From Erysipelotrichaceae bacterium (GTDB lineage Bacteria > Bacillota_I > Bacilli_A > RFN20 > CAG-826): DNA of 64,000 nt. This document shows positions 1,190-60,545 of this stretch, in pieces. The stretch lies in contig JALFFX010000055.1 in NCBI GenBank assembly GCA_022777645.1, positions 2,705-66,704 on the forward strand. Reading direction: 5' to 3'. A model generated the notes under the pieces. It did not search any database. It was not told the DNA's origin and was given only the letters and a program-made list of their open reading frames with translations. Positions within the stretch are counted from its first letter, which is position 1. The number at the start of each line of letters is the position of its first letter. The position numbers and the translations under genes are program-made.

Positions 1190-1859
1190 AAAAATTATAA
1201 TAAAAAGGAAAAAGAAATAAAATTTTGAAAATTGAATTATTAAGAAATTAAGTTAGTTCTCAGTCTTATGTATATATGTGTGCATGTATATATGTATATT
1301 TTATTGTAAGTATTTATCTTTAAAAATAAAAAATTTTGTTTATAGGAAATAACTTAATTTCTTAATAATTTTAACTAAAATCTCTTCGTCTATATATAAT
1401 ATAATATCTCTCTTCGTCCTCTAGTAAGTTGATGTAGTAAGTTTTTAGTAAGTCCTTCTGTGCCTTTGTGTGAGTTATATATAAATATATAAATGTCTAG
1501 TAAGTTTTTGTCATTGTAAAATTTTCCCGACTTTCTCGCGTTAAAAATCAGTTTTTATCTTTAAGTGTAAAATTAAGTTTTTTCAACGTCCCAAAACTGA
1601 AACTTACTAGAGCAACTTACTAGAATTTTTTGTCATACATTTCGTCCTCACTCTACACTTTACTTGTCGTGAAGTGAATAGTCTCCAACGCACTCACATG
1701 CGCTCACTCACATGTGCTTACACATGAGCAATATTATTGCTAAAATACACGCTTATGCATGAGCAATATTATTGCTAAAACACATATATAACTTTATTTA
1801 AAGATAAAAGTATCACATAATACTAAAATATGATACAATAACAACAAGGAGAGATGATT
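1190..1859. promoter_or_regulatory. large non-coding region with iterons (TAGTAAGT x6 in both orientations), duplicated 24-nt palindrome-containing element, (TG/TA)n tract; candidate origin of replication / early promoter hub
   Basis: no credible ORF across ~670 bp; repeats at 1423-1457, 1497, 1604, 1617; CATGAGCAATATTATTGCTAAAA at ~1722 and ~1757; promoter-like TTAAAGATAA + TACAAT at 1796-1845. Confidence 0.45.
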
Positions 1860-1940
1860 ATGAGATTAACAAAAAGTAATGTTAAAAAATATTATTCAGA
1901 AAACAATGATGAATTGTTTGTTGAAGGAGTATCTTTGTGA
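1860..1940 (+). CDS. small ORF (26 aa)
   Basis: AAGGAGAGATGATT-ATG context identical to other genes; TGA overlaps ATG of next gene (TGATG). Confidence 0.3.
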   Translation: MRLTKSNVKKYYSENNDELFVEGVSL

Positions 1941-8990: not shown

Positions 8991-9629
8991 ATGAACGAAT
9001 TAATTTTAGAAACTCAATCAAACGTAGAACGTCAAGAAGAAGCAATTAAAGAAAAACAAAGATTAGTCAAAGAAGTAGCACATCATTATCATATTGATAG
9101 AGATGTAATTTATGCTTATGCTGATTATTTGCATTATTCTGGAAATGCATGGGAAGAAGGAAATCCATTAAAACTTGTTTCAGGAGAACATGTCAAAGAT
9201 AAAATATCACCTACATTTATTAAATTATTAAATATAATTAACGTATTAAGAGATGTTAGTGATTTAGAATTTTTAAGACCATATTTAACAGCATTAAGAG
9301 AACATGGTATTGATATTAAAATTGTTCCTCATGACTCATTAAGTGATAAAACTTTTTTAGAAGATAATATGGCTTTAATTGAAGAACAACAATGTATTAT
9401 TTGTGAAGAATCAGATTTCTTAAAATATAAAGGTGAAGAAGCTGAAGAAAATCAATTTAGTACAAAGAATAAATTTAAAGAACTTACTGAGTCTTACTAT
9501 AAAATTAATAATGGAATTAAATCTGAAAAAGTTATTAATAAATTAACAAAAGATATGTTTAAAAACCATATAAATAACAATGGTATTAGTGAAATTATTG
9601 GCGAACAAAAACATGAAGAGGAAGAATAA
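8991..9629 (+). CDS. hypothetical protein
   Basis: 212-aa ORF with consensus RBS. Confidence 0.7.
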   Translation: MNELILETQSNVERQEEAIKEKQRLVKEVAHHYHIDRDVIYAYADYLHYSGNAWEEGNPLKLVSGEHVKDKISPTFIKLLNIINVLRDVSDLEFLRPYLTALREHGIDIKIVPHDSLSDKTFLEDNMALIEEQQCIICEESDFLKYKGEEAEENQFSTKNKFKELTESYYKINNGIKSEKVINKLTKDMFKNHINNNGISEIIGEQKHEEEE

Positions 9630-11209
9630 TGTCTATTTATTCAAAATTATTTGAGTATCAGAAAAAGATAGTTGATAATAATATAAATAAAAATGCATAT
9701 GGGCTATTTGTAGACATGGGATTAGGAAAAACTCCCATGTCTCTTGCTTTTGCTGAAAAGCATAATTGTACAAAAATATTAATTATTACAACTGCATCAA
9801 AAGCAACTGAAGATAAAACAGTTCATGGGTCATTTTTCTATTGGGCTGCTCAATCATCAATTAAATATAATTTGTATGATAAAAGATATAATTTTGACAA
9901 TAAAGGAGCAAAAAAGTGGAGAGCACAAATTTCACCAGATACTGTTGACATATTTATGACTAATCATGAGTCAACATTTATCAGAGGTGGTGAAAATACT
10001 CGCAACACATCAATGCTAAATAAACAAGTATATGAATTTATAGAAAGTTGTCGAAATCAAAATGTTGCAATTATTGTCGATGAGTCTCACAAAATAAAAA
10101 GTAGAAGTTCAAGTAGAACAAAAGCTTTAATGAAAATTAAGTCACTCTGTGACACAATTAGCAAAAATACATATTTATATTTATTGACTGGGACTCCATT
10201 TACAAAAGGGTTTGAAGATTTATATACTCAATTAAATTTGCTTGGTTGGGATAAATCTTGGACAACATTTAAAGAAACATTTTGTGTTATGGGCAATATT
10301 CCATCATTAACATCTTGGCAACAACCAATTGTTGATTATAAGAATATACCATTATTATTTAATTTAGTGCACAATTATGCTGTGACAATAAAATCTGAAG
10401 AAGTGTTAGATTTACCAGAACAAATCTTTGTATATCATGAACTTCCATTAAATCAACAAATGTTATTGTTCACTTGTAAAAAGTTGCGTGCACAAATTAT
10501 TAATAAAGAATTAAACGCACGTCATATAAATGAATTTGTCAAGCCTGGTGAAAAAGATGGAAAAGTCAATAATATGTTTTATGCAAATATTGCTTATCCA
10601 AACTTAAATTGGCTTGCAGATAGTGTGACAAAGTTTTATACTAGAGCAAGACAATTGAGTATTGGATTCCAAGGTAATAGTGAAAATGCAATGTGGTTTC
10701 AAAAAGCTCGTTTAGCTGAACTTGAAAAACTATTAACTGAACATGAAGACAATTATATTTTGTTCTATAATTACACACCAGAGTTTGTCGAAATATATGA
10801 TATGTGTGAAAGATTAGGTTATAAAATTGATGTTTGTAATGGTTTGATTAAATCAGAAACATTTTATAACGAATATTGCAATTTGTCAGAAGGTCTTAAA
10901 TTAGTTGAAAAGAAACGAATAATGTTAGTCAATTATGGTAGTGGGTCAGAAGGTAAAAATTGGCAAGAATATGATAAATGTATCTTGTTTAGTCTCCCAG
11001 TATTTAAAGATTGGCAACAAGGGTTAAAACGAATTCATAGACCAGGACAAAAAAATAATGTTATTTATCATGTGTTTTATGAAAATAATTGGCTTGATAG
11101 AAGAATGATGGAGTCATTAAAAGAAAAGAAAATATATGATGAAAACATGTTTATGAATGATTTAGCTCGAATTGATAATTTAATTGCTGAAGATTTACAA
11201 GTAAAGTAA
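9629..11209 (+). CDS. SNF2/DEAD-like superfamily-2 helicase
   Basis: motif I FVDMGLGKT, motif II IIVDESHKIK, motif III LLTGTPF; ATG overlaps the upstream stop. Confidence 0.7.
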   Translation: MSIYSKLFEYQKKIVDNNINKNAYGLFVDMGLGKTPMSLAFAEKHNCTKILIITTASKATEDKTVHGSFFYWAAQSSIKYNLYDKRYNFDNKGAKKWRAQISPDTVDIFMTNHESTFIRGGENTRNTSMLNKQVYEFIESCRNQNVAIIVDESHKIKSRSSSRTKALMKIKSLCDTISKNTYLYLLTGTPFTKGFEDLYTQLNLLGWDKSWTTFKETFCVMGNIPSLTSWQQPIVDYKNIPLLFNLVHNYAVTIKSEEVLDLPEQIFVYHELPLNQQMLLFTCKKLRAQIINKELNARHINEFVKPGEKDGKVNNMFYANIAYPNLNWLADSVTKFYTRARQLSIGFQGNSENAMWFQKARLAELEKLLTEHEDNYILFYNYTPEFVEIYDMCERLGYKIDVCNGLIKSETFYNEYCNLSEGLKLVEKKRIMLVNYGSGSEGKNWQEYDKCILFSLPVFKDWQQGLKRIHRPGQKNNVIYHVFYENNWLDRRMMESLKEKKIYDENMFMNDLARIDNLIAEDLQVK

Positions 11210-11500: not shown

Positions 11501-13237
11501 ATGCCAGAAAAAGTCGATATTGAAAAGAAATTAGATAACATCGTTAAAGGTGTTGAAACAAATTACTGGAAAAACTTTACATTATCTGAATGGCGTTTAA
11601 AATTAGCATCTGAATGTCAAGTGTATGTTCATGATGAAAATTACCTTGCAAAAAGATTTGACCAAATAAACTATAAGTTTGTGTCACAAAAAACTGCAAT
11701 GGAAATTTTAAAAGATAATTTATATGCTATTTTGCGTTATAAATATCTAACAAAATCAACAGATGAAGTTGAACAAAGAATTAAAGAAATTGTTCGCTCA
11801 TTTTTAGATAATATTAAAACGTCATTAATTAGAATTAGTTTTAATCCTGATACTGAATGTAAATATGTTAGATGGTTGCCAGATGGTTGTGTTGCTTTCA
11901 GAAATGGTGTATTTGATTTTAGAGAAAATAAATGGTTATTTCAATATCAAAAAATTCGTATTGAAGAATTAAATAATAACATTTATATTTATGACCCAAC
12001 TTATATCATTCAATGGTATATTAATATTGAATTTCAACCGTTAGATGGTATATCAGTCAACAATATGTCTCTTGAAGATTTTACATTATTTATGAAAGAA
12101 TATGATAAAGTCTCAAGAAATTATTGTTTTGAATTAATGTATAACATGTCTCATGATTATGATAATAATTTTAGTAAATCACAATTTAAACATTTATGTG
12201 AAATACTTGGTTATTTGTGCAATCAGTCATTTTTACAATACTTTGTATTATTTATTGGTACTGGTCAAAATGGTAAAAACTCATTATTTGATGGATGTTT
12301 TCTATCAAGAGCAATTCCAATGGCTGCTAATAATGACTTAAATGCTATTGAAGAAGATAAGTTTGTGTCAGGCTCACTTGAAAATAAACCTTTTAACATA
12401 TATTTAGAAACTGATGCAGAAACAATTACAAAATCTAAAAATTTAAAAGCAATTACAGGTTCAATGTATCAAACAATTGAGCACAAAGGTGAAGATAAAG
12501 TATCAGGTATTATTAATTGTAAATTTATTTGGGCAGGTAATGACCAAGATAAAATTAAGTTTAGTGATAATACAACAGGATTTCGACGCAGAATTAACAT
12601 CTTTGAAACATATTACACATGGGATGCTAAAAAGAAATTCTTGTTAACTGGTGATTATTATGATACAACATTTTCACAAGATTTACATGAATTGAAAGAT
12701 GATATACTAAACACAATTGTATTTATTTATTTCGCAATGTTTGGTATTAAATCTGCAACAAACAATTTTACAAAACAATTCTCATTTACAAGCAACGATT
12801 GGAAGATGCAATATGTTGACGCAGACTTTGATTTAAAGGAAAAATTAGATAGAATATCACTTGAAAAAATCAATGATTGGATGTCTAAAACTAGAAATCA
12901 TGAAGCTGCAAAAACATTGTTCTATGATAAAACTCGTAAAAGATTATATGACTCAGCATCTATTAGAGAATTAGGAATTAATAATTTTGAAGAGTTTGTT
13001 GAAAAATTTATTAAAAATGATGAAGTGTTCTTACAATACTTTATTGATAATGATTACTGTTATATGTCTATTCGTCATATTCAAGAAATGAGTGGAACTG
13101 GTGATAAATATGAGCCAACTACATTCACTCAAAACTTAAAAAAGATTTATGGAGTAAGACGAACTGAAAATTTATTTAATAACAAACCTTATGTAAAAGT
13201 TAAGTTTGTTAATAATAAATTAAAAATTATGCAGTAA
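11501..13237 (+). CDS. D5/P4-type primase-helicase (SF3 NTPase)
   Basis: Walker A LFIGTGQNGKNSL typical of D5_N / P4 primase C-terminal NTPase; 578 aa. Confidence 0.6.
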   Translation: MPEKVDIEKKLDNIVKGVETNYWKNFTLSEWRLKLASECQVYVHDENYLAKRFDQINYKFVSQKTAMEILKDNLYAILRYKYLTKSTDEVEQRIKEIVRSFLDNIKTSLIRISFNPDTECKYVRWLPDGCVAFRNGVFDFRENKWLFQYQKIRIEELNNNIYIYDPTYIIQWYINIEFQPLDGISVNNMSLEDFTLFMKEYDKVSRNYCFELMYNMSHDYDNNFSKSQFKHLCEILGYLCNQSFLQYFVLFIGTGQNGKNSLFDGCFLSRAIPMAANNDLNAIEEDKFVSGSLENKPFNIYLETDAETITKSKNLKAITGSMYQTIEHKGEDKVSGIINCKFIWAGNDQDKIKFSDNTTGFRRRINIFETYYTWDAKKKFLLTGDYYDTTFSQDLHELKDDILNTIVFIYFAMFGIKSATNNFTKQFSFTSNDWKMQYVDADFDLKEKLDRISLEKINDWMSKTRNHEAAKTLFYDKTRKRLYDSASIRELGINNFEEFVEKFIKNDEVFLQYFIDNDYCYMSIRHIQEMSGTGDKYEPTTFTQNLKKIYGVRRTENLFNNKPYVKVKFVNNKLKIMQ

Positions 13238-13505: not shown

Positions 13506-14258
13506 ATGCCAAGAACAAGAAAAACAAAAGCACAAAAATTAAGAGAAATGAGATTAAATTCTGTTCCCTTCAATGAATTGTCAGTTCTTGATAAAAGTTA
13601 TTTAAAAAGATTAGATGAAGATAAAAGATATTCATTAGAAATCGACCCTTATAATTTATATGAATTCGACGATGTACATAAACAATTTATTTATTATTAT
13701 GTACAACATCGAAATGTGCCACTTGCTGCAAAATTAGCAGGCATTAATGAAAACAAAGGAATTGAACTTTTTAGAGAACATGCTGTTAGAGAAGAGATAG
13801 ATAGAATCAACATTGCAATGTATGCTAGAAATTTCTCAACAAAAATGTTGACATTAGAAGAAATTGGTGCATATCTTAGTGCAATTGCTACAGACCAAGT
13901 ACCTGATGTTGATAAACTCTCAACAAAAGATAAAATACCAGTATTAAAAATGTTAGTTGACTTAAACGTTTTAAAGAAAGATGGATATGATAATCCTCAA
14001 GTAATTGAAGCAATTGAAATTGAAAAAGATGTAGAAAAATTATCTGTCAAAGCAATTAAAAATCTTATTGATGCAAGTTATGATACAACAGAAGCAGATA
14101 AAGATGATATTATTAAAAGTTTAAATGTTGATGCGTCATTATCTGAAGATGATATAACATTCTTAAAATCACTTTCAAAAGATGACTTATTAAAATTATT
14201 AAATGATTTATCAGATAAAAAAGAAAAAGGAGAAAATACAGATGGAAATGAAAACTAG
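13506..14258 (+). CDS. putative DNA-binding protein with terminase-small-subunit-like N-terminal HTH
   Basis: start reassigned to ATG 13506; segment QFIYYYVQHRNVPLAAKLAGI resembles TerS N-terminal HTH. This assignment is tentative. Confidence 0.3.
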   Translation: MPRTRKTKAQKLREMRLNSVPFNELSVLDKSYLKRLDEDKRYSLEIDPYNLYEFDDVHKQFIYYYVQHRNVPLAAKLAGINENKGIELFREHAVREEIDRINIAMYARNFSTKMLTLEEIGAYLSAIATDQVPDVDKLSTKDKIPVLKMLVDLNVLKKDGYDNPQVIEAIEIEKDVEKLSVKAIKNLIDASYDTTEADKDDIIKSLNVDASLSEDDITFLKSLSKDDLLKLLNDLSDKKEKGENTDGNEN

Positions 14259-14466: not shown

Positions 14467-14654
14467 TGCAAAAAGTAATTATTAAAATTTATATTAAGAA
14501 AAAAGTATCACCATTAGCAACAGTTGAAATTGAAGATGCAAAGAAATTTGATGAACTTTTTGATAATATTGAAAATGCAAAATCTGTTGTTAAGTTCGGT
14601 CAAATTATGTTCTTAAAAACTGAATTTAGATTTGCAACATTGACTTTTAAATAA
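14466..14654 (+). CDS. hypothetical protein
   Basis: 62-aa ORF, ATG overlaps the upstream stop. Confidence 0.45.
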   Translation: MQKVIIKIYIKKKVSPLATVEIEDAKKFDELFDNIENAKSVVKFGQIMFLKTEFRFATLTFK

Positions 14655-14680
14655 GTGCATTGAAAAATGCACTTTTTCTT
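14654..14680 (+). terminator. rho-independent terminator
   Basis: GTGCATTG-AAAA-ATGCAC hairpin + TTTTTCTT running into TTAAAGATAA. Confidence 0.55.
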
Positions 14681-14745
14681 AAAGATAATTATTTATATTT
14701 AAAACAGTATGTTATACAATATAATCAACAAAGGAGTGTAATATT
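14680..14745 (+). promoter_or_regulatory. promoter with TTAAAGATAA element
   Basis: CTTAAAGATAATTATTTATATTT ... TACAAT ... AAAGGAGTG. Confidence 0.45.
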
Positions 14746-14943
14746 ATGGATGTAGTATATTATGCAATAATTTATTTAAAAGATATGCAAGACGTTTTCA
14801 CTGAAATACACATGAAACCGTTTGAGACAAAAGAAGAAGCTCAAAAATGTTGCAGCAAAGTGAATAACGTGTATGGTGAAAGAGTTCTTAAAACAAAAAT
14901 TAGAAGAACTGACTTAGCAAAAACCGGTGAATTCTGGTTATAA
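14746..14943 (+). CDS. hypothetical protein
   Basis: 65-aa ORF with RBS. Confidence 0.5.
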   Translation: MDVVYYAIIYLKDMQDVFTEIHMKPFETKEEAQKCCSKVNNVYGERVLKTKIRRTDLAKTGEFWL

Positions 14944-14964
14944 ATTATTTAGGAGAGATAATTA

Positions 14965-17928: not shown

Positions 17929-18966
17929 ATGAGAAAAACTCTCAAAATGGTTCTTTATGGGGAACCTGGCGAAGGTAAATCAACATTTGTTAGTAAATCA
18001 AAAAACCCATTTTATATTTCTACTGATGGTAATTTTGAATGGTTAGATTTACCTGAACAAAACCATAAACAAATATTCAGTTTTACTGAATTTAAAAACA
18101 TTGTTAAAGACATGATTGACAATCCTGCAAAATATGCTCAATTTGATGTTATTGCAGTTGACTTGATTGAAGATGTCTTTAAATGGTGTGAATTCGAATA
18201 TTGCAAACGTAATAGAGTTGAACATGTTGGTGATATTGGCTATGGCAAAGGCTATGACATCAGCAGAAATGAATTCTATATTGAGATTTGTAAATTATTA
18301 GGATTAGACAAACATGTCGTCTTAATTGCACACGGTTTTACAAAGACTGAAACAAACAATCGTGGCGTTAACGTTACAAAATACTTACCATCTGATAGAA
18401 TTCCTTCTAAAGTTTGGGATATGATTGAAGGTCGTGTAAGATATTTCTTAAGAGCATTTAGTCGTGATGAAGAAACAAGTGAAGGTAAGTTTGTTAAACG
18501 TAGATACTTATCATTGATTCCAAAACAAGGTGAATATGGTATTTCTAGAGGTTTAAATGAAGCTGAAGTTCCTGAAGATATTGATTTAGACTGGAATACA
18601 TTTATCACAGTTATTGGTTTAGAAGATGATGCAACACCAGTTGTTGAAACACAAAAATCAAGAAAACCAAAAATTATTAAAACAGAACAAGTTAAAGAAG
18701 AACCAAAACTTAAAGCAGAACCAAAAGTTGAATCTGCACCTATTGTTGAAGAAAAACAAAAAGTTGTAGAAGAACCAAAAGTTGAATCTGCACCTGTTGT
18801 TGAATCTGCACCTGTTGTTAAAGAAGAACCAAAAGTTGTAGAAGAACCAAAAGTTGAAGAAAAACAAGCACCTATTGTTAAAGAAGAACCAAAAGTTGAA
18901 CAAGTTAAAGAAGAGTCTATGGCTGAAAGAATTGCTCGTATTAAAGCTCAATTTGGTAAAAAATAA
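17929..18966 (+). CDS. AAA_24 / Sak4-like ATPase with C-terminal PEK-rich tandem repeats
   Basis: Walker A MVLYGEPGEGKSTF; C-terminus made of repeated EEPKVE / ESAPVV units. Confidence 0.55.
   Translation: MRKTLKMVLYGEPGEGKSTFVSKSKNPFYISTDGNFEWLDLPEQNHKQIFSFTEFKNIVKDMIDNPAKYAQFDVIAVDLIEDVFKWCEFEYCKRNRVEHVGDIGYGKGYDISRNEFYIEICKLLGLDKHVVLIAHGFTKTETNNRGVNVTKYLPSDRIPSKVWDMIEGRVRYFLRAFSRDEETSEGKFVKRRYLSLIPKQGEYGISRGLNEAEVPEDIDLDWNTFITVIGLEDDATPVVETQKSRKPKIIKTEQVKEEPKLKAEPKVESAPIVEEKQKVVEEPKVESAPVVESAPVVKEEPKVVEEPKVEEKQAPIVKEEPKVEQVKEESMAERIARIKAQFGKK
18690..18900 (+). repeat. in-frame tandem 18-36 nt repeats (GAAGAACCAAAAGTTGAA / GAATCTGCACCTGTTGTT)
   Basis: directly visible as reiterated nucleotide units encoding EEPKVE/ESAPVV. 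Confidence 0.7.
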
Positions 18967-19578: not shown

Positions 19579-20472
19579 ATGAGCGCGATAGATAGTTTAG
19601 AAAATATCGTAAATAATAAACATCTAACAGAGTTCCCATTCAAATATTGTTTAGCAAACAAGTTTAAAATACCATATACTGTCAAGGGCTCATTAGCCCG
19701 CCCAAATGAGTCAGGAGACTTCGTCAGTTTAGATGAATTAATAAACTGTGAGTCTCTTGACAAATATGAGGCAATAGGTATATCAATTCAGGCTTCAAAG
19801 ATTTGTGCACTAGATATTGATAAATGTTTCAGTAAACCATTTGATATAAGTACAGGTGATGATAGAGCAAAAGATATTATTCAAATGTTTAAAAATATTG
19901 CTTATATTGAATTCAGTTTTAGTGGTAGAGGATTAAGAATATTATTTATTGGAAATGATATAGTAAATTACTCAGACATATATTATATTAAAAATACAAA
20001 AACAGGATGTGAGTATTATCAACCATCAAATCCTGCAAGATATGTGACATTGACTGGTAGAACAATTTATGATAATTCATTATATTTAATGAAAGACATG
20101 ACTGTGTTATATCAATTTTTAAATAAATATATGTTAAAACCAGTTAAAACTGAACATAAAATAGTTAATAAAAATGATGAAAAATCATTGGAAAAATTAA
20201 TGAAAATGGTTCGAAAACATTATAGTTTAAATCATACATTCCAAGAATTATGGTTCAATAAAGAACATTATTTAGTAAACAATTTATCACAAGAGTCAGA
20301 TACAGATTTCAAATTATTATCTTATTTATATAGTCATATAACACAAGATGAATTGCTGCTAAGATTAGTATTTGAAGAAAGTCCTTATTTCAAAACAAAG
20401 GACCAAAAACATATGAAAAAGTGGACTGCTAGTGATTATAGATATTATAAATTTATGTATCAACACTTATAA
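19579..20472 (+). CDS. archaeo-eukaryotic primase (AEP) PrimPol-like protein
   Basis: ICALDIDK (DxD motif I) and SGRGLRILF (sGxGxH-like motif II). Confidence 0.45.
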   Translation: MSAIDSLENIVNNKHLTEFPFKYCLANKFKIPYTVKGSLARPNESGDFVSLDELINCESLDKYEAIGISIQASKICALDIDKCFSKPFDISTGDDRAKDIIQMFKNIAYIEFSFSGRGLRILFIGNDIVNYSDIYYIKNTKTGCEYYQPSNPARYVTLTGRTIYDNSLYLMKDMTVLYQFLNKYMLKPVKTEHKIVNKNDEKSLEKLMKMVRKHYSLNHTFQELWFNKEHYLVNNLSQESDTDFKLLSYLYSHITQDELLLRLVFEESPYFKTKDQKHMKKWTASDYRYYKFMYQHL

Positions 20473-22368: not shown

Positions 22369-24186
22369 ATGAAAATAATTATTTGGGATTTTGAAGTATT
22401 TAAACATGATGTCTTATTAGGGACAATTATTGTTGACGGACAAAATCAAACTGTTTATCAAACATGGGATGAAGATGAAATTAGAGCATTCTATCAAGAA
22501 CATAAAAATGACATTTTTGTTGGACATAATTCTACATATTATGATGACCTTATATTAGAAGCAATTGTTCAGCATAAAAGTGCTTATGAAAAATCACAAC
22601 AAATAATTAATGGTGGAATTAGACGTAAAGCAAAATTTCATTTATACTCATATGATTTAATGTCAGTAAGTAGAACACCATTTAGTTTAAAATTAACTGA
22701 ATTGATTTGTGGTAAAAACATTCATACAACAGACGTTGATTTTAATTTAGATAGACAATTAACTGATGAAGAAAAAAAGTTGACTGAAAGTTATAATTTA
22801 GATGATTTAAAACAAACATTATATAACTTCAATATGTTCTTCAATCAGTTTAAATTAAGAATGCAAATTATTCAAAAATATAATTTAGATTTAATGCATA
22901 ATTTGAGAGTCACAGGAACACAATTGGCAGCTAATGTTTTAGGCGCACACAATGACCCTTCATTAAAACATAAACCAATTCCTGCTGAAATATATCCGAC
23001 ATTAAGATTAGAAAATAAACGTCTTCGTGAATTTTATTTAAATGAAGAGTTTAGACAAGGTAAATCTGATATAATTAATGTCGCTGGAGCAGAATTGACA
23101 ATTGCTGCTGGTGGAATTCATTCAGCAATTAAAAAATTTCATGCACCAAAGATATTTTATGCAGATGTATCTGGCTATTATAATCTTGTTATGATGAACC
23201 TTGATTTATTACCAAGAACAATGCCGACTGAATCAAAAGAAGCATATGAGTTTATGTATCATGAACAATTACGTTTAAAGAAACATCCGGAACTTGCTGA
23301 TGAACGTTCAATGTATAAGACAATTTTGTTGTCAGTATTTGGAGCAATGAATAATGAATATACAGATTTCTATGACCCTTGGAAAGCATTATTAGTTACT
23401 ATCAGCGGACAATTATTCTTAGTTGATTTATTAGAAAAAATGGAAGGACTTGTCACAGTTGTGCAAGCAAATACAGATGGTTTAATGCTAATACCAAATG
23501 ACTGGAATGATGAACCAAAACTTATTAAAATAATTGAAGAATGGGAAGCACGTACAGGATTTGTTATTAAAAAGGAACATGTGTATAATTTATGGCAAAG
23601 AGATGTTAACTGTTATATTTGTCAAGATGAAAAAGGTGGAGTAATTTTTAAAGGTGATACATTCAGAAATTATGTTGTTGATGATGTTCAATATGCATCT
23701 TGTCGATTATTTGATTGTAAAGAACCACCAATTATTGCACAAGGAGTAGGAGATTATTTGTTATATGGTAAATTACCAGAAGATACAGTAAAAGAAAAAG
23801 CTCAAAACTTAATTTTATTCCAATATGCATGTAAAAAATTAAGTTATAATTATATGACTGAAGATAAGATATTGTTATATAAAACAGAAAGAGGTAAAAT
23901 AAAAGAAGAGTTAATTTCATCTAAAGTAGTCAAACCATTAAATCGTGTATTTGCTGCTAAACCAGAATATGTTGAAGGTTTGCCAATAATCACAATTCTT
24001 ACAAAACATAAAGATGCTAATGGTAAACATAGTACATCGAAAGTCGCAAACTTACCTGACTCAGTATTTATCTATAATGAAGATATAACAAATGCTTATG
24101 ATAAATTAAAAGATAAAATAAATTGGCAATATTATATTGACCGTATTTACGAAAAAATATTAGATTTCATGCCGGAAGGAGATTAA
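22369..24186 (+). CDS. family-B DNA polymerase, compact phi29-like type (605 aa)
   Basis: ExoI DFE, ExoII HNSTYYDD (HNxxFD-like), motif A YADVSGYYN, motif B KTILLSVFG, motif C ANTDGLML. Confidence 0.55.
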   Translation: MKIIIWDFEVFKHDVLLGTIIVDGQNQTVYQTWDEDEIRAFYQEHKNDIFVGHNSTYYDDLILEAIVQHKSAYEKSQQIINGGIRRKAKFHLYSYDLMSVSRTPFSLKLTELICGKNIHTTDVDFNLDRQLTDEEKKLTESYNLDDLKQTLYNFNMFFNQFKLRMQIIQKYNLDLMHNLRVTGTQLAANVLGAHNDPSLKHKPIPAEIYPTLRLENKRLREFYLNEEFRQGKSDIINVAGAELTIAAGGIHSAIKKFHAPKIFYADVSGYYNLVMMNLDLLPRTMPTESKEAYEFMYHEQLRLKKHPELADERSMYKTILLSVFGAMNNEYTDFYDPWKALLVTISGQLFLVDLLEKMEGLVTVVQANTDGLMLIPNDWNDEPKLIKIIEEWEARTGFVIKKEHVYNLWQRDVNCYICQDEKGGVIFKGDTFRNYVVDDVQYASCRLFDCKEPPIIAQGVGDYLLYGKLPEDTVKEKAQNLILFQYACKKLSYNYMTEDKILLYKTERGKIKEELISSKVVKPLNRVFAAKPEYVEGLPIITILTKHKDANGKHSTSKVANLPDSVFIYNEDITNAYDKLKDKINWQYYIDRIYEKILDFMPEGD

Positions 24187-24664: not shown

Positions 24665-26743
24665 TTATAAATCACCATAATAATTTATTGCAGTTCTTAA
24701 ACAAGATACAAAACCATCATCAATAGTTTTTATTTTACCAATTTGTTTTTCATCATAACGGACATTTTCAATGTCAGCGATTGTTTGCTTACAATGTTGA
24801 TTTATTACAACATATTGTGAGCCAAATGCTTTATTTAATAACATTGTTGACTCTTCATAACTATCTGGAGTATAACGTTCAATAATAATATCATTATCAG
24901 CATCATACATTCCTGTCATACTCTCAATTTTACTTGAGTCAATATATACATTCTTATCAGGTGTAAATTCTTTCATCATCTTTAAAGCATCTTTAATATT
25001 GGCTCTAAATTTAGTCTCACGAATAACTTGAATTTGCGGATAAAGACCATATTTAACACCAATGTCTAAAACTTTCCAAGTATCACCTGTTCTAGCAAAG
25101 AAAGTTGTACTATAATCATAATCTAATTTATCTTCAGTAACAATATTAAGGTCTGTGAATGCTTTACCATAAGCAGCATATTTTTGTCCTTGGAAAACAT
25201 ATAATATAAGCATAGTAAATGCATCGACAATATCATCATGTTGAACAAATGGAAAAGCAATTAGACGTTGCTTAAGATTTTGCATGTTTTCTGTAAGAAT
25301 ATATTTATTTTGAGTTGCGTCCCATTTAGTTCTAACAAATACAACATTACCTGACTGTACATAATCTGATGCATATTGCATACGCTCAGACTTGTCCATA
25401 TTACCTGGGTTCCAAGCTCTCATACCTGGAACATCATCTTGTAATTCTGTCATTAATGGTGACCCATTTGCTTTATCTTCAATTATATTTATTATTCCTT
25501 CATAAACATTTTCTAGTGACATCAAATATTGCTTAGAACGTGTAAAATTTTGTTTTGCTTCTAAACAATCGACAATATAAATTGTTTTATTAATCTTATA
25601 TGCAAGTAAAGAACCCAAAAAGTCATTTTTTGATTTGTCTTTGACAGGGAAATCATGAGAACCATATATTACTGTTGCAACATTTTCATCAATTCGATTA
25701 TTATGTGTGTCCCACCCTGGAACATTAATACAATCTTCTTCTTTTATCATATCTTCCTTGATAATAGTTTGGTCAGATGCAATTGGATTTTGTAAATATT
25801 GTGTTTCCCATACTGTTGGTCCAACAAGTGCTTTGATACGAGAATAATCACCAAAACGTTCAGGCCATAAATAATCATCTTGTTTATATTCAATAATATC
25901 ACCTGATATAGGACATATTAAATAAGTGTGCTTTTTAAATTGTGCAGGTAAAACAACAAATATAAATTGTGATGCTAACACTTCATCATTTTTAATACGT
26001 CCAGTGACATCGTTTGGAGCCAATCTTTGTTGAATATTGAGAATAATATATTTATCAGGATTATTAACACGAGAAGGCAATGTATTACGGAAGAACGACC
26101 AAGCATTATTCATTTCTTCTTTATCTTTTCTTGCTGCTTCAGCATTTGTCAAGTCGTCACATATAAGAATATCTGCGCCATAACCTGTCATAGCATCTCT
26201 GTTCATAGAATATAATTCTGCAGCACGATTGTCAACAAGTTTAAATGCTGAGTTTGTGACCAATTGTATGTCAGGGAAAAAGAATTTAAAACGCTCACTG
26301 TTTAATACACGTTGACGAGCAATATTCATTTCACCTGCTAAACCTTGAGTGTGAGATATTGATGCTAACTTGATAGGGTCATTTAGCCACATCCATACAC
26401 CACCGAGAACATTAAATGTTTTTGATTTTGTATGACGAGGAGGTAAGTTGATATTACCATTTTGTTTATTTTGACGAACATCAATTATTTCTATATCATC
26501 CCATGTTTCATCGCCGACTGGCTCAGGCAAAATGATTTCTTTTTCAGGTCCATCATAACCTAACCAAGGTCGACAAAGATATTGAAAAAATTCACAGTAA
26601 AATTGAATTATCTTACCATCAATAAATGGAGCAGGGTCAGCTTCACACCAAAAATCTTTTACAAATGAATAAAAGTCTTTTTGATAGAGTTGACGATATA
26701 GAATTTTTTGAGTTTGCGATAGTGTTTTGTAATTATATAACAT
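24665..26743 (-). CDS. terL: terminase large subunit
   Basis: N-terminal ATPase with P-loop-like LPPRHTKSKT and Walker B ILICDDL, plus a C-terminal nuclease-sized domain; 692 aa. Confidence 0.65.
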   Translation of the reverse strand: MLYNYKTLSQTQKILYRQLYQKDFYSFVKDFWCEADPAPFIDGKIIQFYCEFFQYLCRPWLGYDGPEKEIILPEPVGDETWDDIEIIDVRQNKQNGNINLPPRHTKSKTFNVLGGVWMWLNDPIKLASISHTQGLAGEMNIARQRVLNSERFKFFFPDIQLVTNSAFKLVDNRAAELYSMNRDAMTGYGADILICDDLTNAEAARKDKEEMNNAWSFFRNTLPSRVNNPDKYIILNIQQRLAPNDVTGRIKNDEVLASQFIFVVLPAQFKKHTYLICPISGDIIEYKQDDYLWPERFGDYSRIKALVGPTVWETQYLQNPIASDQTIIKEDMIKEEDCINVPGWDTHNNRIDENVATVIYGSHDFPVKDKSKNDFLGSLLAYKINKTIYIVDCLEAKQNFTRSKQYLMSLENVYEGIINIIEDKANGSPLMTELQDDVPGMRAWNPGNMDKSERMQYASDYVQSGNVVFVRTKWDATQNKYILTENMQNLKQRLIAFPFVQHDDIVDAFTMLILYVFQGQKYAAYGKAFTDLNIVTEDKLDYDYSTTFFARTGDTWKVLDIGVKYGLYPQIQVIRETKFRANIKDALKMMKEFTPDKNVYIDSSKIESMTGMYDADNDIIIERYTPDSYEESTMLLNKAFGSQYVVINQHCKQTIADIENVRYDEKQIGKIKTIDDGFVSCLRTAINYYGDL

Positions 26744-55148: not shown

Positions 55149-56906
55149 TTACTCTTCTTCAGCTCCTCTAGCTACTTCTGTCGACTCAGTTCTTTCAACT
55201 GGCTCAACATTACTTGCTGGCTCAATTTCTTCGGCTGTATTATCTCCTTCTTCTCTGTTATCAACATTCTCTTCTATATCAGTGTTTGTCTCGACTCCTG
55301 AACTTTCTATACTCTCAGTCTCACTCACAAACGGATTATTTGAAAATGTTGGTCTATTAATCTTAGCAGTTGGATGTTTCTTGCCAATTACATCAATTGA
55401 GTCAAGTATAGTTTGTTCTTCTTCTAATTTAAGTACACCTAACATGTTATCATCTATATTGATGTCGATTGCATCATTGTTAATATAATTCTTAATCGAC
55501 ATAGCATATTGATATTTACTAATAATACCATTATTGACTAACTCATTCAACATAGTTGATAATTCTCTAATTGATGTGACTTTGTCCTTGTTCTCTTCGT
55601 CTTTAACGAGTGAGATGAAGTCAAAGTCAGGTGAACCTTTAACATCATATACGATGAACAAAATCTTTAAGAACTTATTGAGCACTGGTCTGAAGAACTC
55701 ATTGCATCTGTTCTTGATTGTTATTGCATATCTCTTTAATGCGTCAGTTTCTTGACTAAGTCCACCTTTAAGGTCACCATAAAGTATGCCTTGCATTTCT
55801 AATGCTGCACTTATCAACCACATATTTTTTTCCATTAAATCAGATAAGCCACTCAATCCACTCATTGTAAATTGATTATACTCGTCATCTTTATCAAGGA
55901 ATGTTAATGAATTATATGTTCTACCATAATTAACCATTGCAAGTCTTTGTTCAAGTTGTTTCATTGAACCTTTGTCCATACCCATGAAGATACTTCTCAT
56001 ACCTTTCATCTTAACAACTTCTATTAACGACTTGTTAACTAAACTTGTAATTGAACTTTTTAACTGGTCATCTCTAGCTAACTCATTCAATATATGTGCA
56101 CCTTCAGCATAACCCCAACCTTGCAAATAACCCATCTTCAATAATCTTGGCGCATTACGATGCTCATATCTTAAAACAAAACTGTGATGGACAGTCCAAG
56201 ACTTACCATTAGCAAATGTCACTTCATATGAGTAAGGTTTGCCATAATCTATGTCCTTCATGCTACTAACTGTTCTTGTAGATTGTGAACAACCATACCA
56301 TCTATCAGTAACATAAATCTTAAAACGTTTACCTTTAATCATTGCAGGACTTAATGGCTTTGCATAATCCTCAACCTTAAATCCTTCAAACATTATGACA
56401 CCAATTGCACCACCAAATAAAGCTCCCCACTTTAACAAATTGATAAGCTCTGATTTATACTTCTCATATGCTTTGTATATTTCTGTATAATCTTCATTAC
56501 CATGTAAAGTAAAGCCACAGTTAACCTCATCTTGTGCTGGCTTATCAATTGCTCTACGAAATACCCATGAATCATTATATATTGCTAACCATAATGTATA
56601 ATTGAGTGTATCATTGCTAAAGCCATAGTTTGTAAATGACTGTACTTTATCATTAGTGCCAATTGCTGCTAATGAATTGCCATAACTATCTTTGAGTGTT
56701 GTTGCTGCATGATTAACAGGCTTACTTTTTGCTGCAATGCTATCATATCTTTCTGCAGTATCTTCAATTGACTCTCTAAGTGTTGGAACTTGAGATGCAC
56801 GACTTGCTTCACCTATTGTTGAAGCAAATATACTTTGCACTTGTCCGAACTCAGAGTCTGAAAGACCTGTAGATAAATTAGTTGTTGTCTTAATACTTTT
56901 CTCCAT
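55149..56906 (-). CDS. portal protein candidate (alternative: a second sheath-like protein)
   Basis: 585 aa with a long acidic C-terminal tail; first large gene of the late transcription unit. Confidence 0.3.
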   Translation of the reverse strand: MEKSIKTTTNLSTGLSDSEFGQVQSIFASTIGEASRASQVPTLRESIEDTAERYDSIAAKSKPVNHAATTLKDSYGNSLAAIGTNDKVQSFTNYGFSNDTLNYTLWLAIYNDSWVFRRAIDKPAQDEVNCGFTLHGNEDYTEIYKAYEKYKSELINLLKWGALFGGAIGVIMFEGFKVEDYAKPLSPAMIKGKRFKIYVTDRWYGCSQSTRTVSSMKDIDYGKPYSYEVTFANGKSWTVHHSFVLRYEHRNAPRLLKMGYLQGWGYAEGAHILNELARDDQLKSSITSLVNKSLIEVVKMKGMRSIFMGMDKGSMKQLEQRLAMVNYGRTYNSLTFLDKDDEYNQFTMSGLSGLSDLMEKNMWLISAALEMQGILYGDLKGGLSQETDALKRYAITIKNRCNEFFRPVLNKFLKILFIVYDVKGSPDFDFISLVKDEENKDKVTSIRELSTMLNELVNNGIISKYQYAMSIKNYINNDAIDINIDDNMLGVLKLEEEQTILDSIDVIGKKHPTAKINRPTFSNNPFVSETESIESSGVETNTDIEENVDNREEGDNTAEEIEPASNVEPVERTESTEVARGAEEE

Positions 56907-56982: not shown

Positions 56983-57426
56983 TTAAAATACTCTTAAACT
57001 ATCAAAAGCTCTATCTTCTATGCAACCATAACACAACAATAACGATAATGCTTTTAACTGTGCATCAGTTAAACGTGTCACATTGTGTATATTGTTATAC
57101 CACACATAAATAATGCCTAACTCACTCATCATCTTATCATAACAATCTGCATCATGTCTAAAGTGCTCAACACAATATTCTCGTGTCCAACCTTTTAACT
57201 TACAATATTCTAATAAGCATTTTTCTGAGTGTGAAGGAATAGCATACTCAATTGTGCCATCAGGCCAGATTATCACTTCGCAATAATTGACAAACACTTG
57301 ACTATGCACCTTATAACTAAAAGGCATATAAAGATATTTGTTGCTCAAATGATGTGGTGACTTGCCATTGTTGCGATATTCAGCAATTTCAAGCAATTGT
57401 TGATGTTCAATACTATTGTCATGCAT
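56983..57426 (-). CDS. hypothetical Cys-rich protein
   Basis: 147-aa ORF. Confidence 0.5.
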   Translation of the reverse strand: MHDNSIEHQQLLEIAEYRNNGKSPHHLSNKYLYMPFSYKVHSQVFVNYCEVIIWPDGTIEYAIPSHSEKCLLEYCKLKGWTREYCVEHFRHDADCYDKMMSELGIIYVWYNNIHNVTRLTDAQLKALSLLLCYGCIEDRAFDSLRVF

Positions 57427-57616
57427 AATACTTAACTATCTCACCATCATTTGTTAATACTATAACACGAAATGCTTGTGTAAACCTTTGCACTATTTTT
57501 GCAACTTTTAGTGTATCACTTGTAGTTAATGCTTTCTTATACTTAGTTGTAATTGACATATATTTATCGACCCAATATTGACGTTTATCTCGACGATTAA
57601 TAACAACTATTTGCAT
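57419..57616 (-). CDS. hypothetical protein
   Basis: 65-aa ORF. Confidence 0.4.
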   Translation of the reverse strand: MQIVVINRRDKRQYWVDKYMSITTKYKKALTTSDTLKVAKIVQRFTQAFRVIVLTNDGEIVKYYA

Positions 57617-57618
57617 AA

Positions 57619-57807
57619 TTATCTTTCCTTATGCATTAAACTGCTTGCACTCTCATCCCAGTTAGATGAATGTTTGTTTTCAAACTTATTAGCATCTGCC
57701 CAAGCATCACTACTATTAGAATACCACTTTGTAGTGTATTGATGCCATTTTCCATCACCAGTATATGGTGATTCTAAATATCTAATTCTTACTGCCCACA
57801 CTCTCAT
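57619..57807 (-). CDS. hypothetical protein
   Basis: 62-aa ORF. Confidence 0.35.
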   Translation of the reverse strand: MRVWAVRIRYLESPYTGDGKWHQYTTKWYSNSSDAWADANKFENKHSSNWDESASSLMHKER

Positions 57808-58051
57808 ACATTCTTCTTATTTGCCTAAGTATTTGTCTACCAGCGTGCTTATCACTTGGCGTATTGCTAACAACCATCATGCCAACAGGCATTACGATTT
57901 TCGAATGATTACTACCTTTGTTTACAATGAAGCCGACATTCTCTAACCTTTGTATGACATGCACACTTAAACCTTTATAATCAATAAATATGTCTATGAG
58001 TTCGCACCATATCTTATTTAATTCATTTGATGTAGTAGCTAATCTGCACAT
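57782..58051 (-). CDS. HicA/YcfA-like protein (candidate mRNA-interferase toxin fold)
   Basis: KGSNHSKIVMPVG....SNTPSDKHAGRQILRQI parallels HicA GSNH...P.H....ILKQ; RBS AAAAGGAG. Confidence 0.4.
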   Translation of the reverse strand: MCRLATTSNELNKIWCELIDIFIDYKGLSVHVIQRLENVGFIVNKGSNHSKIVMPVGMMVVSNTPSDKHAGRQILRQIRRMYESVGSKN

Positions 58052-58308
58052 TCATTGATACTCCTTTTAAGTTCTTCCAATTGTTTTTTCTTACTTTCAA
58101 TATCATATTCGATACTTATTGCTTCGAAGATGTTATCAGCTTTACCTAACACTGCTTCATAAACATCTAACATATCTTCTAAGTATTGAGTGTCTGCTTC
58201 TCTATTTTGATATTGATACTCAAATTCAGCATCCCATTCATAATTCATAAACCTGAGCAACCAAGTTTGTTGGTCTTCAGTCATTTCAATCTTAACTTTA
58301 TTTTTCAT
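58039..58308 (-). CDS. hypothetical acidic protein
   Basis: start reassigned to MKNKVK (GAGGAG RBS). Confidence 0.45.
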   Translation of the reverse strand: MKNKVKIEMTEDQQTWLLRFMNYEWDAEFEYQYQNREADTQYLEDMLDVYEAVLGKADNIFEAISIEYDIESKKKQLEELKRSINECAD

Positions 58309-58504
58309 ATGACTCCTCGCTTGTGCCATCAGCATAGTAGATGTTAATGCGTTGCCAACCATTGTGTTGTAATGTTCGTGTACAAGCACATTCTTTATCT
58401 ATACTAATAATGACATTTTCACCATTTGCATTTTTGCCTACAAGTGGCTCTTCAATATAACCATACTTTTGTAATAGTTCATTGTACATATATCTATCCT
58501 CCAC
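58298..58504 (-). CDS. hypothetical protein
   Basis: 68-aa ORF. Confidence 0.4.
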   Translation of the reverse strand: MEDRYMYNELLQKYGYIEEPLVGKNANGENVIISIDKECACTRTLQHNGWQRINIYYADGTSEESYEK

Positions 58505-58555
58505 ATTATTATTGTATCACATTCATGGTTAAAGATACGTATTTATCTTTAATGA

Positions 58556-58987
58556 CTATTTATCACTTCCTACTTTAAACCAATACTTGTGCATTGTGAC
58601 TTTACTTGCATCCCAAATATCTCTAACTTTACCGTCAACAATACAGCTGAGATGATGTGTGCCTGCAACAATTACAAATGTGCCTTTTGTGATTTGTTCT
58701 TCTATCATCCACTCTTTAACTGTCATCTTACGATTGTTAACATCTCTTGGCTCTTTGCATCTGATGAAACCATGTGTCTCTAAGTATTTCTCATATACAT
58801 GCCAGTCAATGAGAACAAAACCTTTTTTAATTCCAACTTCAGTGAGTTCACGTACTGTTTGTTCCCAGCTTTGTCCAGTTGCTAGAGCGATCGCTCTAAT
58901 AACACAATCACCGCCATATTTATCTTTTGGATTCACATTAGTATATTCATAGAAATCTGTGTTTTGAAACCTAAGCTCTTTTTTCAT
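58556..58987 (-). CDS. putative papain-fold (CHAP/NlpC-like) Cys-His peptidase
   Basis: GGDCVIRAIALA ... VAGTHHLSCIVDG spacing resembles Cys...His catalytic dyads. Confidence 0.3.
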   Translation of the reverse strand: MKKELRFQNTDFYEYTNVNPKDKYGGDCVIRAIALATGQSWEQTVRELTEVGIKKGFVLIDWHVYEKYLETHGFIRCKEPRDVNNRKMTVKEWMIEEQITKGTFVIVAGTHHLSCIVDGKVRDIWDASKVTMHKYWFKVGSDK

Positions 58988-59166
58988 TAATCATCAATCT
59001 CCTTCACATTATTATTGTATAATAAAAGAGTGCATAAGCACTCAGTTATCTTTAATAATAAATAATGGTCTTTTTTTTTTTATATTTCCCCAATATATTA
59101 TACTACATTTTGACTTAAATCTAACTAGTTATCTTTAAAATCATATGTAGTTAATTATTATTTAAA
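58988..59166 (-). promoter_or_regulatory. ~85-bp promoter cassette (palindromic AAAGATA-N6-TATCTTT, extended -10 TGGTATAAT-like, T11 tract)
   Basis: same unit recurs at 60016-60262 and 61768-61860. Confidence 0.5.
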
Positions 59167-59682
59167 TTAATGAATTTTGAAAACTTGATTTGCATCTGCT
59201 TTCATTATATCTCTAGTATGTTTATCAAGATTTGTTATTTCATCAATATTTTTATCTGGAAAATAAGAACATTCTTCACCTAATGCTGCTTGCACATATA
59301 CTGAAAATGGAAATGTCAGCATATGTTTAGAAACATTATTATCAATTAAATTTTTGGTAATCCATCTATCAGCCAAATATCCTTCATCAAAACTTTCAGG
59401 CCAATCATGATTAATATGATATACTTCAACATTTGAAAAATCTGATGCAATTTTTTCAACAGGTATTTGTAAATATAATGCTAAACATTTTCTAATATCT
59501 TCATTTGAATGAAAACAATCATAAAAATATTCATTTTCTAAAAAACCTTTTTTAATTCCTTCATAATTTTTATTACTGTCAAATTCATCAATATTATTGA
59601 TTGCTGGTTCCCATTTTAAGTTAATAGTATCTTTAAATTTTCTAATACTATCAATGATTTTCTTTTTTTCATTTTTATTCAT
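59167..59682 (-). CDS. hypothetical protein
   Basis: start set at MNKNEKK (AAATGGAG RBS). Confidence 0.5.
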   Translation of the reverse strand: MNKNEKKKIIDSIRKFKDTINLKWEPAINNIDEFDSNKNYEGIKKGFLENEYFYDCFHSNEDIRKCLALYLQIPVEKIASDFSNVEVYHINHDWPESFDEGYLADRWITKNLIDNNVSKHMLTFPFSVYVQAALGEECSYFPDKNIDEITNLDKHTRDIMKADANQVFKIH

Positions 59683-59728
59683 ATTAATTACTCCATTTCT
59701 ATATATATAATATAACATCAATATTGTT

Positions 59729-59956
59729 TTATAAAATTATTTTTTTTTCATTTTCAATTTCTTCAAACTCACTTATAAGAAATTTTCTAAAATCTTCATC
59801 TAAAAGTATATCTTCATCAGAACATCTTCTAATATTTTTAAATTCACAATATATATCAACGATGTCTTGATGTTTTTCTTTTAACATGAGTTGAATATAT
59901 TGTAGCATTTGTAATTCTTTATGTGAGAGTGTTTGTGTAGTAAATTTCAATTTCAT
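59729..59956 (-). CDS. hypothetical protein
   Basis: 75-aa ORF. Confidence 0.45.
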   Translation of the reverse strand: MKLKFTTQTLSHKELQMLQYIQLMLKEKHQDIVDIYCEFKNIRRCSDEDILLDEDFRKFLISEFEEIENEKKIIL

Positions 59957-60284
59957 TTTACATCATTCCTTATTTGCATTTATATTATACTATAAAACAA
60001 TACAAATCTAACTAGTTATCTTTAAGTAAAATAATACTCTTTTTTTTTTTTTATATATTTCCCCAGTATATTATACCACATTTTTACTTAAAGATACATA
60101 ATTATCTTTAAGTAAAATTCTTTTTTTTTTTAATATTCTCCAAATATATTATACCATATTTTTACTTAAATGTAATCAGTTATCTTTAATGATAAATAAT
60201 GGATTTTTTTTTATATATTTCCCTAGTATATTATACTATATTTTTACTTAAAAGTAATTAGTTATCTTTAATGATAAATAATCC
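59957..60284 (-). repeat. tandem array (~3.3 copies) of the ~80-87-bp promoter cassette
   Basis: unit boundaries at TTATCTTTA occurrences 60015, 60101, 60180, 60262; each unit contains a T9-T13 run and TATATT(T)CCCCAGTATATTATAC. Confidence 0.65.
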
Positions 60285-60545
60285 ATTCCAGTCTTCGTCT
60301 GCGTATGATTCAAATGTATCATGTTCAACAAGAAACTCTGCTGTTGAGATGATGACTTGAGCATACATGTTATCATGTGAATATTCAGCTGCTGGAGTTT
60401 CGCTGCCATCGGCTTCCAATGTTGCAGCATCGTAGCAATAATCTAAGAAGTCATCATCATAGTGTCCGTGTAAGTATGAATATTCAATGATGATATTATA
60501 ATAAGTTTTGAGAGTGCATGTCTCAAGATTAAGTTCATATCTCAT
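60258..60545 (-). CDS. hypothetical acidic protein
   Basis: 95-aa ORF. Confidence 0.5.
   Translation of the reverse strand: MRYELNLETCTLKTYYNIIIEYSYLHGHYDDDFLDYCYDAATLEADGSETPAAEYSHDNMYAQVIISTAEFLVEHDTFESYADEDWNGLFIIKDN

Follow-up and report, generated by a model that had tools for sequence, protein, structure and literature searches.

A candidate replication origin with lineage-specific iterons in an uncultured Erysipelotrichaceae-associated phage

Replication origins are unknown for almost all uncultured gut phages, and the locus described here raises the question of whether one can be recognized from its own layout and from that of its relatives. It lies in a 64,000-nucleotide stretch of contig JALFFX010000055.1 (positions 2,705 to 66,704; assembly GCA_022777645.1, Erysipelotrichaceae bacterium), hereafter the window, a phage-like, AT-rich sequence with about 28% G+C. 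The interval without genes is in fact 783 nucleotides (nt) long, 1077-1859, and an earlier reading of most of it, the original prediction, had left the choice between an iteron origin and an early regulatory hub. Comparative support now favors the origin, whereas regulation is plausible only for a pair of window-specific palindromes beside the rightward promoter. We lean toward the view that the interval is a bidirectional replication origin served by a phage-encoded superfamily 3 (SF3) helicase. The sequence elements, their significance, the conservation of their plan with lineage-specific words, and the presence of the SF3 helicase are observed.

An inverted repeat around an AT-rich spacer

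The strongest single feature of the region is an inverted repeat whose arms, 1232-1259 and 1346-1373, are complementary at 25 of 28 positions across an 86-nt spacer; in 120 Markov simulations of matched composition the best inverted repeat averaged 11.3 +/- 1.5 matches, with a maximum of 20. Each arm carries two copies of the word ATTAAG, the two pairs being opposed in orientation. The core and its left flank are made up as follows.

1171-1232: phased A-tracts adjoining the core, with spacings of 10, 9, 12, 7, 10, and 9 bp
1232-1259, plus strand: left arm, with ATTAAG iterons at 1239 and 1247, 8 bp apart
1260-1345: spacer of 86 nt, 83% A+T, a candidate DNA-unwinding element
1314-1323, minus strand: within the spacer, an orphan copy of the promoter word TTAAAGATAA (see below)
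1346-1373, minus strand: right arm, with inverted ATTAAG iterons at 1353 and 1361, 8 bp apart

Stretches starting at 1284 and 1307 fall within roughly the 0.1% least stable 60-100-nt windows of the genome. The (TG/TA)n tract that had earlier been placed at 1268-1300 is a perfect 33-nt alternating purine-pyrimidine run at 1267-1299, inside the spacer, and is the sole such run of at least 20 nt in the window. On the other side of the left arm, the phased A-tracts likely form intrinsically bent DNA flanking the core.

Word arrays beside the core

The original prediction had built its case for an origin on an array of TAGTAAGT. That array stands, with the four direct and two inverted copies that had been counted (their positions were 1-3 nt off), but the actual core—the inverted ATTAAG pairs and their 86-nt spacer—had been overlooked, as had the phased A-tracts, the leftward promoter, and gene 726-1076. 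Six of the seven copies of TAGTAAGT in the window fall within the approximately 200 bp of 1422-1622, against 2.8 expected over all 64 kb. A single base separates TAGTAAGT from the core word ATTAAGT, so that one formula, A(T/G)TAAGT, covers the words of the whole region. The elements to the right of the core are the following.

1381-1418, plus strand: two copies of TCTCTTCGTC (1381 and 1409) bracketing TATATATAATATAATA
1422-1505, plus strand: direct TAGTAAGT(T) iterons at 1422, 1435, 1446, and 1498, with spacings of 13, 11, and 52 bp
1555-1564, minus strand: a second orphan TTAAAGATAA, without a -10 element at the family distance
1572-1579, plus strand: a fifth iteron, ATTAAGTT
1602-1622, minus strand: inverted TAGTAAGT iterons at 1602 and 1615, 13 bp apart

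The inverted pair at 1602/1615 forms a 25-nt inverted repeat with 1420-1444. The 9-mer CTAGTAAGT is confined to 1421, 1497, and both inverted copies, so that the leading C is present in four of the six. A promoter-like TTAACT-18-TATAAT at 1371-1400 is weak evidence in DNA as AT-rich as that found there.

A shared plan with lineage-specific words

Relatives were fetched from IMG/VR, public assemblies, and GTDB genomes with the helicase and other proteins as anchors. The same plan was found in at least 12 of them (L001-L007, L010, L013, L106, and L107, with L011 as a partial case because the locus as fetched begins inside its region); poor conservation among relatives, raised at the outset as a possible objection, was therefore not what we saw. 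Where measured, the helicases of relatives sharing the plan are 43-55% identical to that of the window; this figure does not cover L106, to which a different early protein led. In the relatives, the region is flanked by the first gene read leftward, in most cases portal, and by the first of the early genes. Its left part consists of a leftward promoter, two words 8 bp apart, an AT-rich spacer (64-170 nt, often with a TA/TG run), and inverted words, and its right part of arrays in which direct words number three to five and inverted words two to five, at distances of about 11-13 bp with some wider gaps, followed by a rightward early promoter. The two-word arm with 8-bp spacing is also present in L001, L002, L003, L005, and L006, and in both L001 and L002 an equivalent leftward TTTACA promoter lies at the same edge of the region. 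The words themselves differ between lineages.

L001: ATTAACTT
L002: ATTAAGTC
L003: TTTAAGTT
L005 and L006: TTTAAG
L010 and L013: CTATTAACA
L107: TTTATC

Words of 7-8 nt occur at 8-18 per kb within the region and at 0.02-0.7 per kb elsewhere in each locus, while 6-nt words are less distinctive in density and L007 is weak. The absence of the words from other promoters speaks against a general transcription factor. A plan that is kept while its word turns over is the mark of a cis element whose reader, a sequence-specific protein, co-evolves with it. Near-identical copies of the window (L094-L098, from three sequencing runs) differ by one substitution in the region and, for that reason, give no footprinting power.

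Two further features were seen in the regions of relatives. A second motif, TTTACTTTC(A/G)AA, has 21 of its 24 copies inside the same non-coding regions of a subclade (L003 1524-1683; L004 6581-6823; L005 4876-5455; L006 5165-5736; L010 2658 and 2814; L013 450); its sequence is kept between genomes with different iterons and resembles the -35 part of their early promoters, and it is absent from the region of the window. Alternating purine-pyrimidine CA/TG/CG runs of 25-32 nt (L004 6475-6572, L005 4769-4795, L006 5072-5096) adjoin the portal-side promoter and are the longest such runs in those loci.

The candidate initiator helicase

The candidate initiator is a 578-amino-acid (aa) protein encoded at 11501-13237 on the plus strand. 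It matches Pfam DUF5906 (1.6e-12) and by that match is an SF3 helicase; helicases of the SF3 or SF6 type serve the origins of Staphylococcus aureus pathogenicity islands (SaPIs). Its best PHROG matches are families labelled 'DNA primase', and no primase domain was detected in it by a Pfam scan. A Foldseek search with the helicase model, in which the ATPase core is poorly predicted, returned poxvirus D5/E5 and the SaPI5 protein PriRep (7ola) with probabilities of 0.98-1.0 and E-values of 5e-4 to 7e-3; a PDB sequence search with the helicase, alone or as a profile, gave no matches.

Modelled separately, the last 148 residues (about 431-578) form a confidently predicted fold (pLDDT, the predicted local distance difference test score, 92.5) that ends in alpha-beta-alpha-alpha-beta-beta, the canonical winged-helix order. 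The C-terminal domain is also the most divergent part of the protein, its mean pairwise identity being 42%, whereas the N-terminal domain reaches 58% and the ATPase 69%. A putative recognition helix, P-x-x-F-T-Q-x-L-K-K-x-Y, has variable positions, and only genomes with the same word agree at them; such agreement would fit an initiator that reads the words, but shared ancestry alone would also give it.

Comparison with known origins

The origin reading is supported by the close match between the core module and the layout described for SaPI origins. These have 6-12 short iterons and a central AT-rich region with at least two oppositely oriented iterons per side. A self-loading SF3/SF6 helicase binds these iterons with its C-terminal domain, a winged helix, and one hexamer of it is probably loaded on each side (PMC9371898). 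The domain order of SF3 helicase followed by winged helix is also that of P4 alpha and of pRN1 ORF904 (PMC2777425). In the window, five ATTAAG and six TAGTAAGT iterons lie within 1239-1622, a number in the SaPI range, and the ATTAAG pairs place two iterons, in opposite orientation, on either flank of the AT-rich segment. The likeness thus takes in short iterons, an AT-rich center, opposed pairs, and an SF3 helicase with a C-terminal domain (DNA-binding in SaPIs). It extends to the presence of SaPI5 PriRep among the structural matches and, for SaPI1, to a primase separate from the helicase (Pri plus Rep). There are differences as well: the phage words are 7-9 nt long and those of SaPIs 5-6 nt, the phage has an extra array module (1422-1622) with a one-base variant word, the element that carries the region is a 69-kb myovirus rather than a satellite, and the winged helix is here only predicted.

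Phage P4 offers a second comparison. Ziegelin et al. reportedly found its octamer iterons, present in both orientations, to be bound by the C-terminal winged-helix domain of alpha, and P4 resembles the present phage in having a second cluster of the same words (crr) apart from ori. However, crr lies kilobases from ori in P4, whereas the two modules are adjacent in the phage. Alpha has a fused DnaG-type primase, whereas the phage primase is encoded separately, so that the P4-type fusion is lacking here, and no sequence similarity was detected in the PDB search with the phage helicase.

At polyomavirus and papillomavirus origins, which are served by large T antigen and E1, inverted words and an easily melted tract nucleate a head-to-head double hexamer. 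The phage shares with them an SF3 helicase-initiator, inverted short words, and an AT-rich or easily melted tract; they are eukaryotic viruses, however, whose origin-binding domain precedes the helicase on its N-terminal side and has a fold other than the winged helix, and their words are pentamers in a compact 64-bp core. The lambda ori and iteron plasmids (RepA, pi, TrfA) have iterons beside a region of AT-rich DNA that unwinds, as well as winged-helix initiators, but those initiators are not helicases and require a host or phage helicase loader, and their iterons, 17-22 bp in length, are for the most part direct repeats. In such origins DnaA boxes are common, but they are not enriched in the phage region: with at most one mismatch, TTATCCACA has 25 matches in the window against 26 expected, and one in the region, inside the leftward promoter. 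Since the boxes are at chance level, the region does not have the makeup of a DnaA-dependent iteron origin.

A model for initiation

The binding partner, melting, and replication function of the region we infer as follows. The SF3 helicase-initiator would use its winged-helix-like C-terminal domain to bind the A(T/G)TAAGT words, and the opposed pairs at 1239/1247 and 1353/1361 would position two helicase assemblies head to head. With help from the alternating TA/TG run and the bent A-tract DNA, these assemblies would melt the spacer (1260-1345) and load themselves for two diverging forks, after which the primase-polymerase (19579-20472) and the DNA polymerase (22369-24186) would take over. The TAGTAAGT arrays (1422-1622), whose words are about one helical turn apart, may act as auxiliary initiator sites that recruit, enhance, or control, and 34-nt palindromic repeats at 1716-1784 may form a separate operator regulating the rightward promoter.

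A broader proposal can be made, to which we give only a small chance. It holds that the origin has two modules, that the word read by a single SF3 helicase family has been re-tuned repeatedly across a large clade of uncultured phages, that the distinction between ATTAAG in the core and TAGTAAGT in the array separates loading from control or handcuffing, and that the orphan TTAAAGATAA copies at 1314 and 1555 couple firing to the early transcription machinery.

Boundaries, promoters, and palindromes of the interval

The interval is limited on the left by the start of a minus-strand gene (726-1076) and on the right by a 26-codon open reading frame (ORF) at 1860. No ORF of at least 30 aa, in any frame, was found between 1201 and 1936, in agreement with the earlier statement that no credible one is present, and 1077-1859 is the sole long, truly non-coding region of the window. 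A second gap, at 14467-14964, was rejected as a comparable region; it holds small ORFs and one promoter, and no repeats. The elements toward the edges are the following.

1127-1099, minus strand: leftward promoter PL, TTTACA-17-TATAAT, driving gene 726-1076
1691-1718, plus strand: tandem 14-mer CACTCACATG(C/T)GCT in two copies, and a further, third CACATG at 1721; G+C content peaks here within the region
1716-1749 and 1751-1784, plus strand: two copies of a 34-nt direct repeat, 91% identical, containing 23-nt elements
1798-1839, plus strand: rightward early promoter PR, with TTAAAGATAA at 1798-1807, then 26 nt, and TG-n-TACAAT at 1831-1839 (TACAAT at 1834-1839)
1860-1939, plus strand: first ORF of the early operon, 26 codons, with a strong ribosome-binding site, AGGAGA

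PL agrees with the consensus at 11 of 12 positions and was the top match of the promoter scan. The region had been described as lying between convergent terminators and a plus-strand promoter near 1796. The promoter is real, with TTAAAGATAA at 1798 and the family spacing of 26 nt to TACAAT, but on the terminator side gene 726-1076 intervenes. This gene is transcribed divergently from the region and encodes a 116-aa protein with a strongly acidic C-terminal tail, which has no Pfam or PHROGs family and no tblastn match in cultured phages. At the other edge, the 26-codon ORF is hypervariable, with about 12 substitutions and a 9-nt indel relative to 8951-9039 of L097, a near-identical contig; the 783-nt non-coding region differs from that of L097 by a single substitution.

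The motif and spacing of PR are common to about 16 other promoters of the phage. Members of this family carry TTAAAGATAA, often as the palindrome TTAAAGATAA-N4-TATCTTTAA, exactly 26 nt upstream of a TAtAAT -10 element (sites include 8922, 11440, 14679, 58543, 59046-62277 on the minus strand, 62438, and 63711). There are 22 exact copies of TTAAAGATAA in the window, always co-oriented with the local genes, and 84 matches with one mismatch against 31 expected; this pattern suggests that a dimeric factor may bind over the -35 region of the early promoters that carry it.

Between the arrays and PR, the reiteration of CACATG that had been noted is present, at 1695, 1709, and 1721, and the count of the 8-mer of this element is by itself not above chance. 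Farther right, the duplication of a palindromic element was correctly identified, but the element is 23 rather than 24 nt long and starts at 1723 and 1758. Each copy of the 34-nt repeat includes one palindrome, AGCAAT-ATT-ATTGCT (1727-1741 and 1762-1776), and these are the only AGCAATATTATTGCT palindromes in the window. The repeats and palindromes have no equivalent in the regions of relatives, and the exact 23-nt element has no match in IMG/VR. Lying just upstream of PR, the palindromes are a plausible candidate operator for a dimeric regulator. The region gave no Rfam match of note to a non-coding RNA, and ARAGORN found no tRNA genes in the window.

Genome context

The gene content of the phage is of the virulent myovirus type. 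A contig from another sample, L097 (99.25% identical), bridges the two ends of the window with 4,883 nt that carry small genes on the plus strand; since the ends are joined in this way, the phage genome is a circle or circular permutation of about 69 kb. Its main blocks and genes are these.

1860-24186, plus strand: early and replication genes, among them those for a PD-(D/E)XK exonuclease, a Sak4-like ATPase, a single-strand DNA-binding protein, and a thymidylate synthase
9629-11209, plus strand: SNF2 helicase
19579-20472, plus strand: primase-polymerase-like protein, separate from the SF3 helicase
22369-24186, plus strand: DNA polymerase
24665-62256, minus strand: structural block, including tail sheath, baseplate, and prohead protease
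24665-26743, minus strand: large terminase, at the far end of the late block
55149-56906, minus strand: portal

No close relatives were found among cultured phages by megablast, by blastn, or by tblastn of the helicase and the 116-aa neighbor protein. The DNA polymerase and large terminase reach at most 22-31% identity to isolates, which is too low for the packaging type to be read from them. Within the Sak4-like gene, the 3′ part (18650-18950) contains tandem 8-mers, AAAAGTTG and GAACCAAA, in six copies each, and two independent assemblies break at 18784-18851, within this tandem-repeat stretch.

Compared with relatives of 55-58 kb, the phage has about 11 kb of small genes between portal and the origin-like region, spanning 57000-62256 on the minus strand and, on the plus strand, 62507 through the 4.9-kb gap to 654. 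Each has its own strong promoter and often a terminator with an A/T run, and the insert looks like a host-takeover or accessory module. Despite this insert on its portal side, the region is still attached to the early operon.

Weighing the origin against other explanations

Several points weigh against an origin at 1077-1859. First, cumulative GC skew, which had been suggested as a check, reaches its minimum roughly 7.5 kb from the region, at about 62.6 kb of the 68.9-kb circle as reconstructed. This minimum and the maximum at 24.6 kb are both switches in transcription direction, and skew is positive in the plus-strand block that runs from 62.5 kb round to 0.65 kb, even though this block would lie on the leftward replichore; the skew follows transcription and the coding strand, and thus neither supports nor refutes an origin. 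Second, the best E-value in a Foldseek search with the C-terminal domain was 0.53, so that no match was significant and the winged-helix assignment is statistically unsupported, although the top of this non-significant list consists mostly of winged-helix regulators of the Fur, MecI, HxlR, and ArsR types. Third, covariation between the C-terminal domain and the iterons is confounded by phylogeny. Fourth, with its end at 1859 and the helicase gene beginning at 11501, the region lies 9.6 kb upstream of that gene, whereas a SaPI origin lies immediately downstream of its helicase gene; in the position of origin relative to helicase the phage therefore departs from the SaPI type. Among the relatives, the distance varies: the region is directly upstream of this gene in L107 and as much as about 9 kb away, likewise upstream, in L013. 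Fifth, in the larger relatives L014, L015, and L099-L101 no such region was found within reach; in these and in L105 the equivalent was either not reached or is organized differently, and the gaps that were seen contain tRNA-like genes or a different, GT-rich repeat. Finally, repeated words that flank a central segment are also found at the pac sites of P1 and SPP1, where the central segment is cleaved.

Observations made in the larger relatives are given here for their own sake. In L015 (IMGVR_UViG_3300021387_001438, a 75-kb relative), 289-984 is a 700-nt, C-poor (10% C) gene-free stretch with 14 copies of GG[TC]A[AG][AG]G[TC], all on one strand, against three in the remaining 21 kb; it has neither an AT-rich core nor inverted copies and is a repeat region of a different kind. 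The early regions of the 80-kb relatives contain tRNA-like or structured RNA genes (L099 3400-3700, L100 3800-4100, L101 4400-4650) and an ORF resembling a NUMOD3 homing endonuclease, features that are absent from the window.

The words might instead be operators through which a repressor, or an early/late switch like phi29 p4, controls PL and PR, with no role in replication. We regard this purely transcriptional reading as unlikely for the iterons, even though the region lies between divergent promoters and contains orphan copies of the promoter-associated TTAAAGATAA. Operators would be expected to adjoin the promoters that they regulate and to recur at co-regulated ones; the iterons lie 100-400 bp from either promoter and are absent from the other approximately 16 promoters and from the rest of each relative's locus. 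Furthermore, it is not evident what promoter control would gain from a conserved AT-rich spacer between inverted word pairs, and no helix-turn-helix regulator was detected among the neighboring early proteins. The window-specific palindromes are a different matter: at 1727-1776 they adjoin PR, about 70-120 nt upstream of its start, and for them an operator function is reasonable.

Packaging initiation, in which a small terminase would sit on the words while terminase cuts the central segment of a pac- or cos-type site, seems to us quite improbable. In its favor, the region in the 55-58-kb relatives lies directly upstream of the portal gene, the opener of the structural operon, and a 250-aa protein encoded beside the helicase gives weak small-terminase signals (Pfam Terminase_2, E = 0.003; phrog_51, E = 0.002). 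However, this signal appears in only one of 12 family members, that of the window, and a profile search of PDB finds no terminase. No contig end of the assemblies falls inside the region, an observation that is uninformative about packaging. The approximately 11 kb of accessory genes part the region from portal while it stays with the early operon, and a strongly AT-rich, low-stability core is a hallmark of origins rather than of pac sites. A pac or cos site would lie in or next to the terminase genes and be bound by small terminase, whereas the large terminase gene (24665-26743) is 23 kb away. The 250-aa protein (13506-14258, plus strand) is itself conserved directly downstream of the helicase in all relatives and has a basic N-terminus with a motif resembling the helix-turn-helix of small terminases; as a small terminase it was rejected, the match being weak and not common to its homologues.

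A partition centromere of a plasmid-prophage, with the arrays bound by a ParB/ParR-type adaptor, is highly improbable: direct and inverted repeats spaced 11-13 bp apart and adjoining a promoter do resemble parC/parS sites, but no ParA/ParM or ParB/ParR family, integrase, or repressor turned up among the proteins scanned, a set that did not take in every small ORF, and the gene content is that of a virulent myovirus.

Implications

If it is a replication origin, as seems most likely, the region is a real but fairly ordinary kind of element. The concept is already established for SaPIs, P4, and small DNA tumor viruses; no new principle emerges, and the benefit lies in annotation and in material for comparison. 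A recognizable, conserved plan would allow origins to be annotated across a clade of 55-80-kb Erysipelotrichaceae-associated myoviruses, and the clade would provide a natural series of matched word and helicase variants in which to study how self-loading SF3 helicases read DNA.

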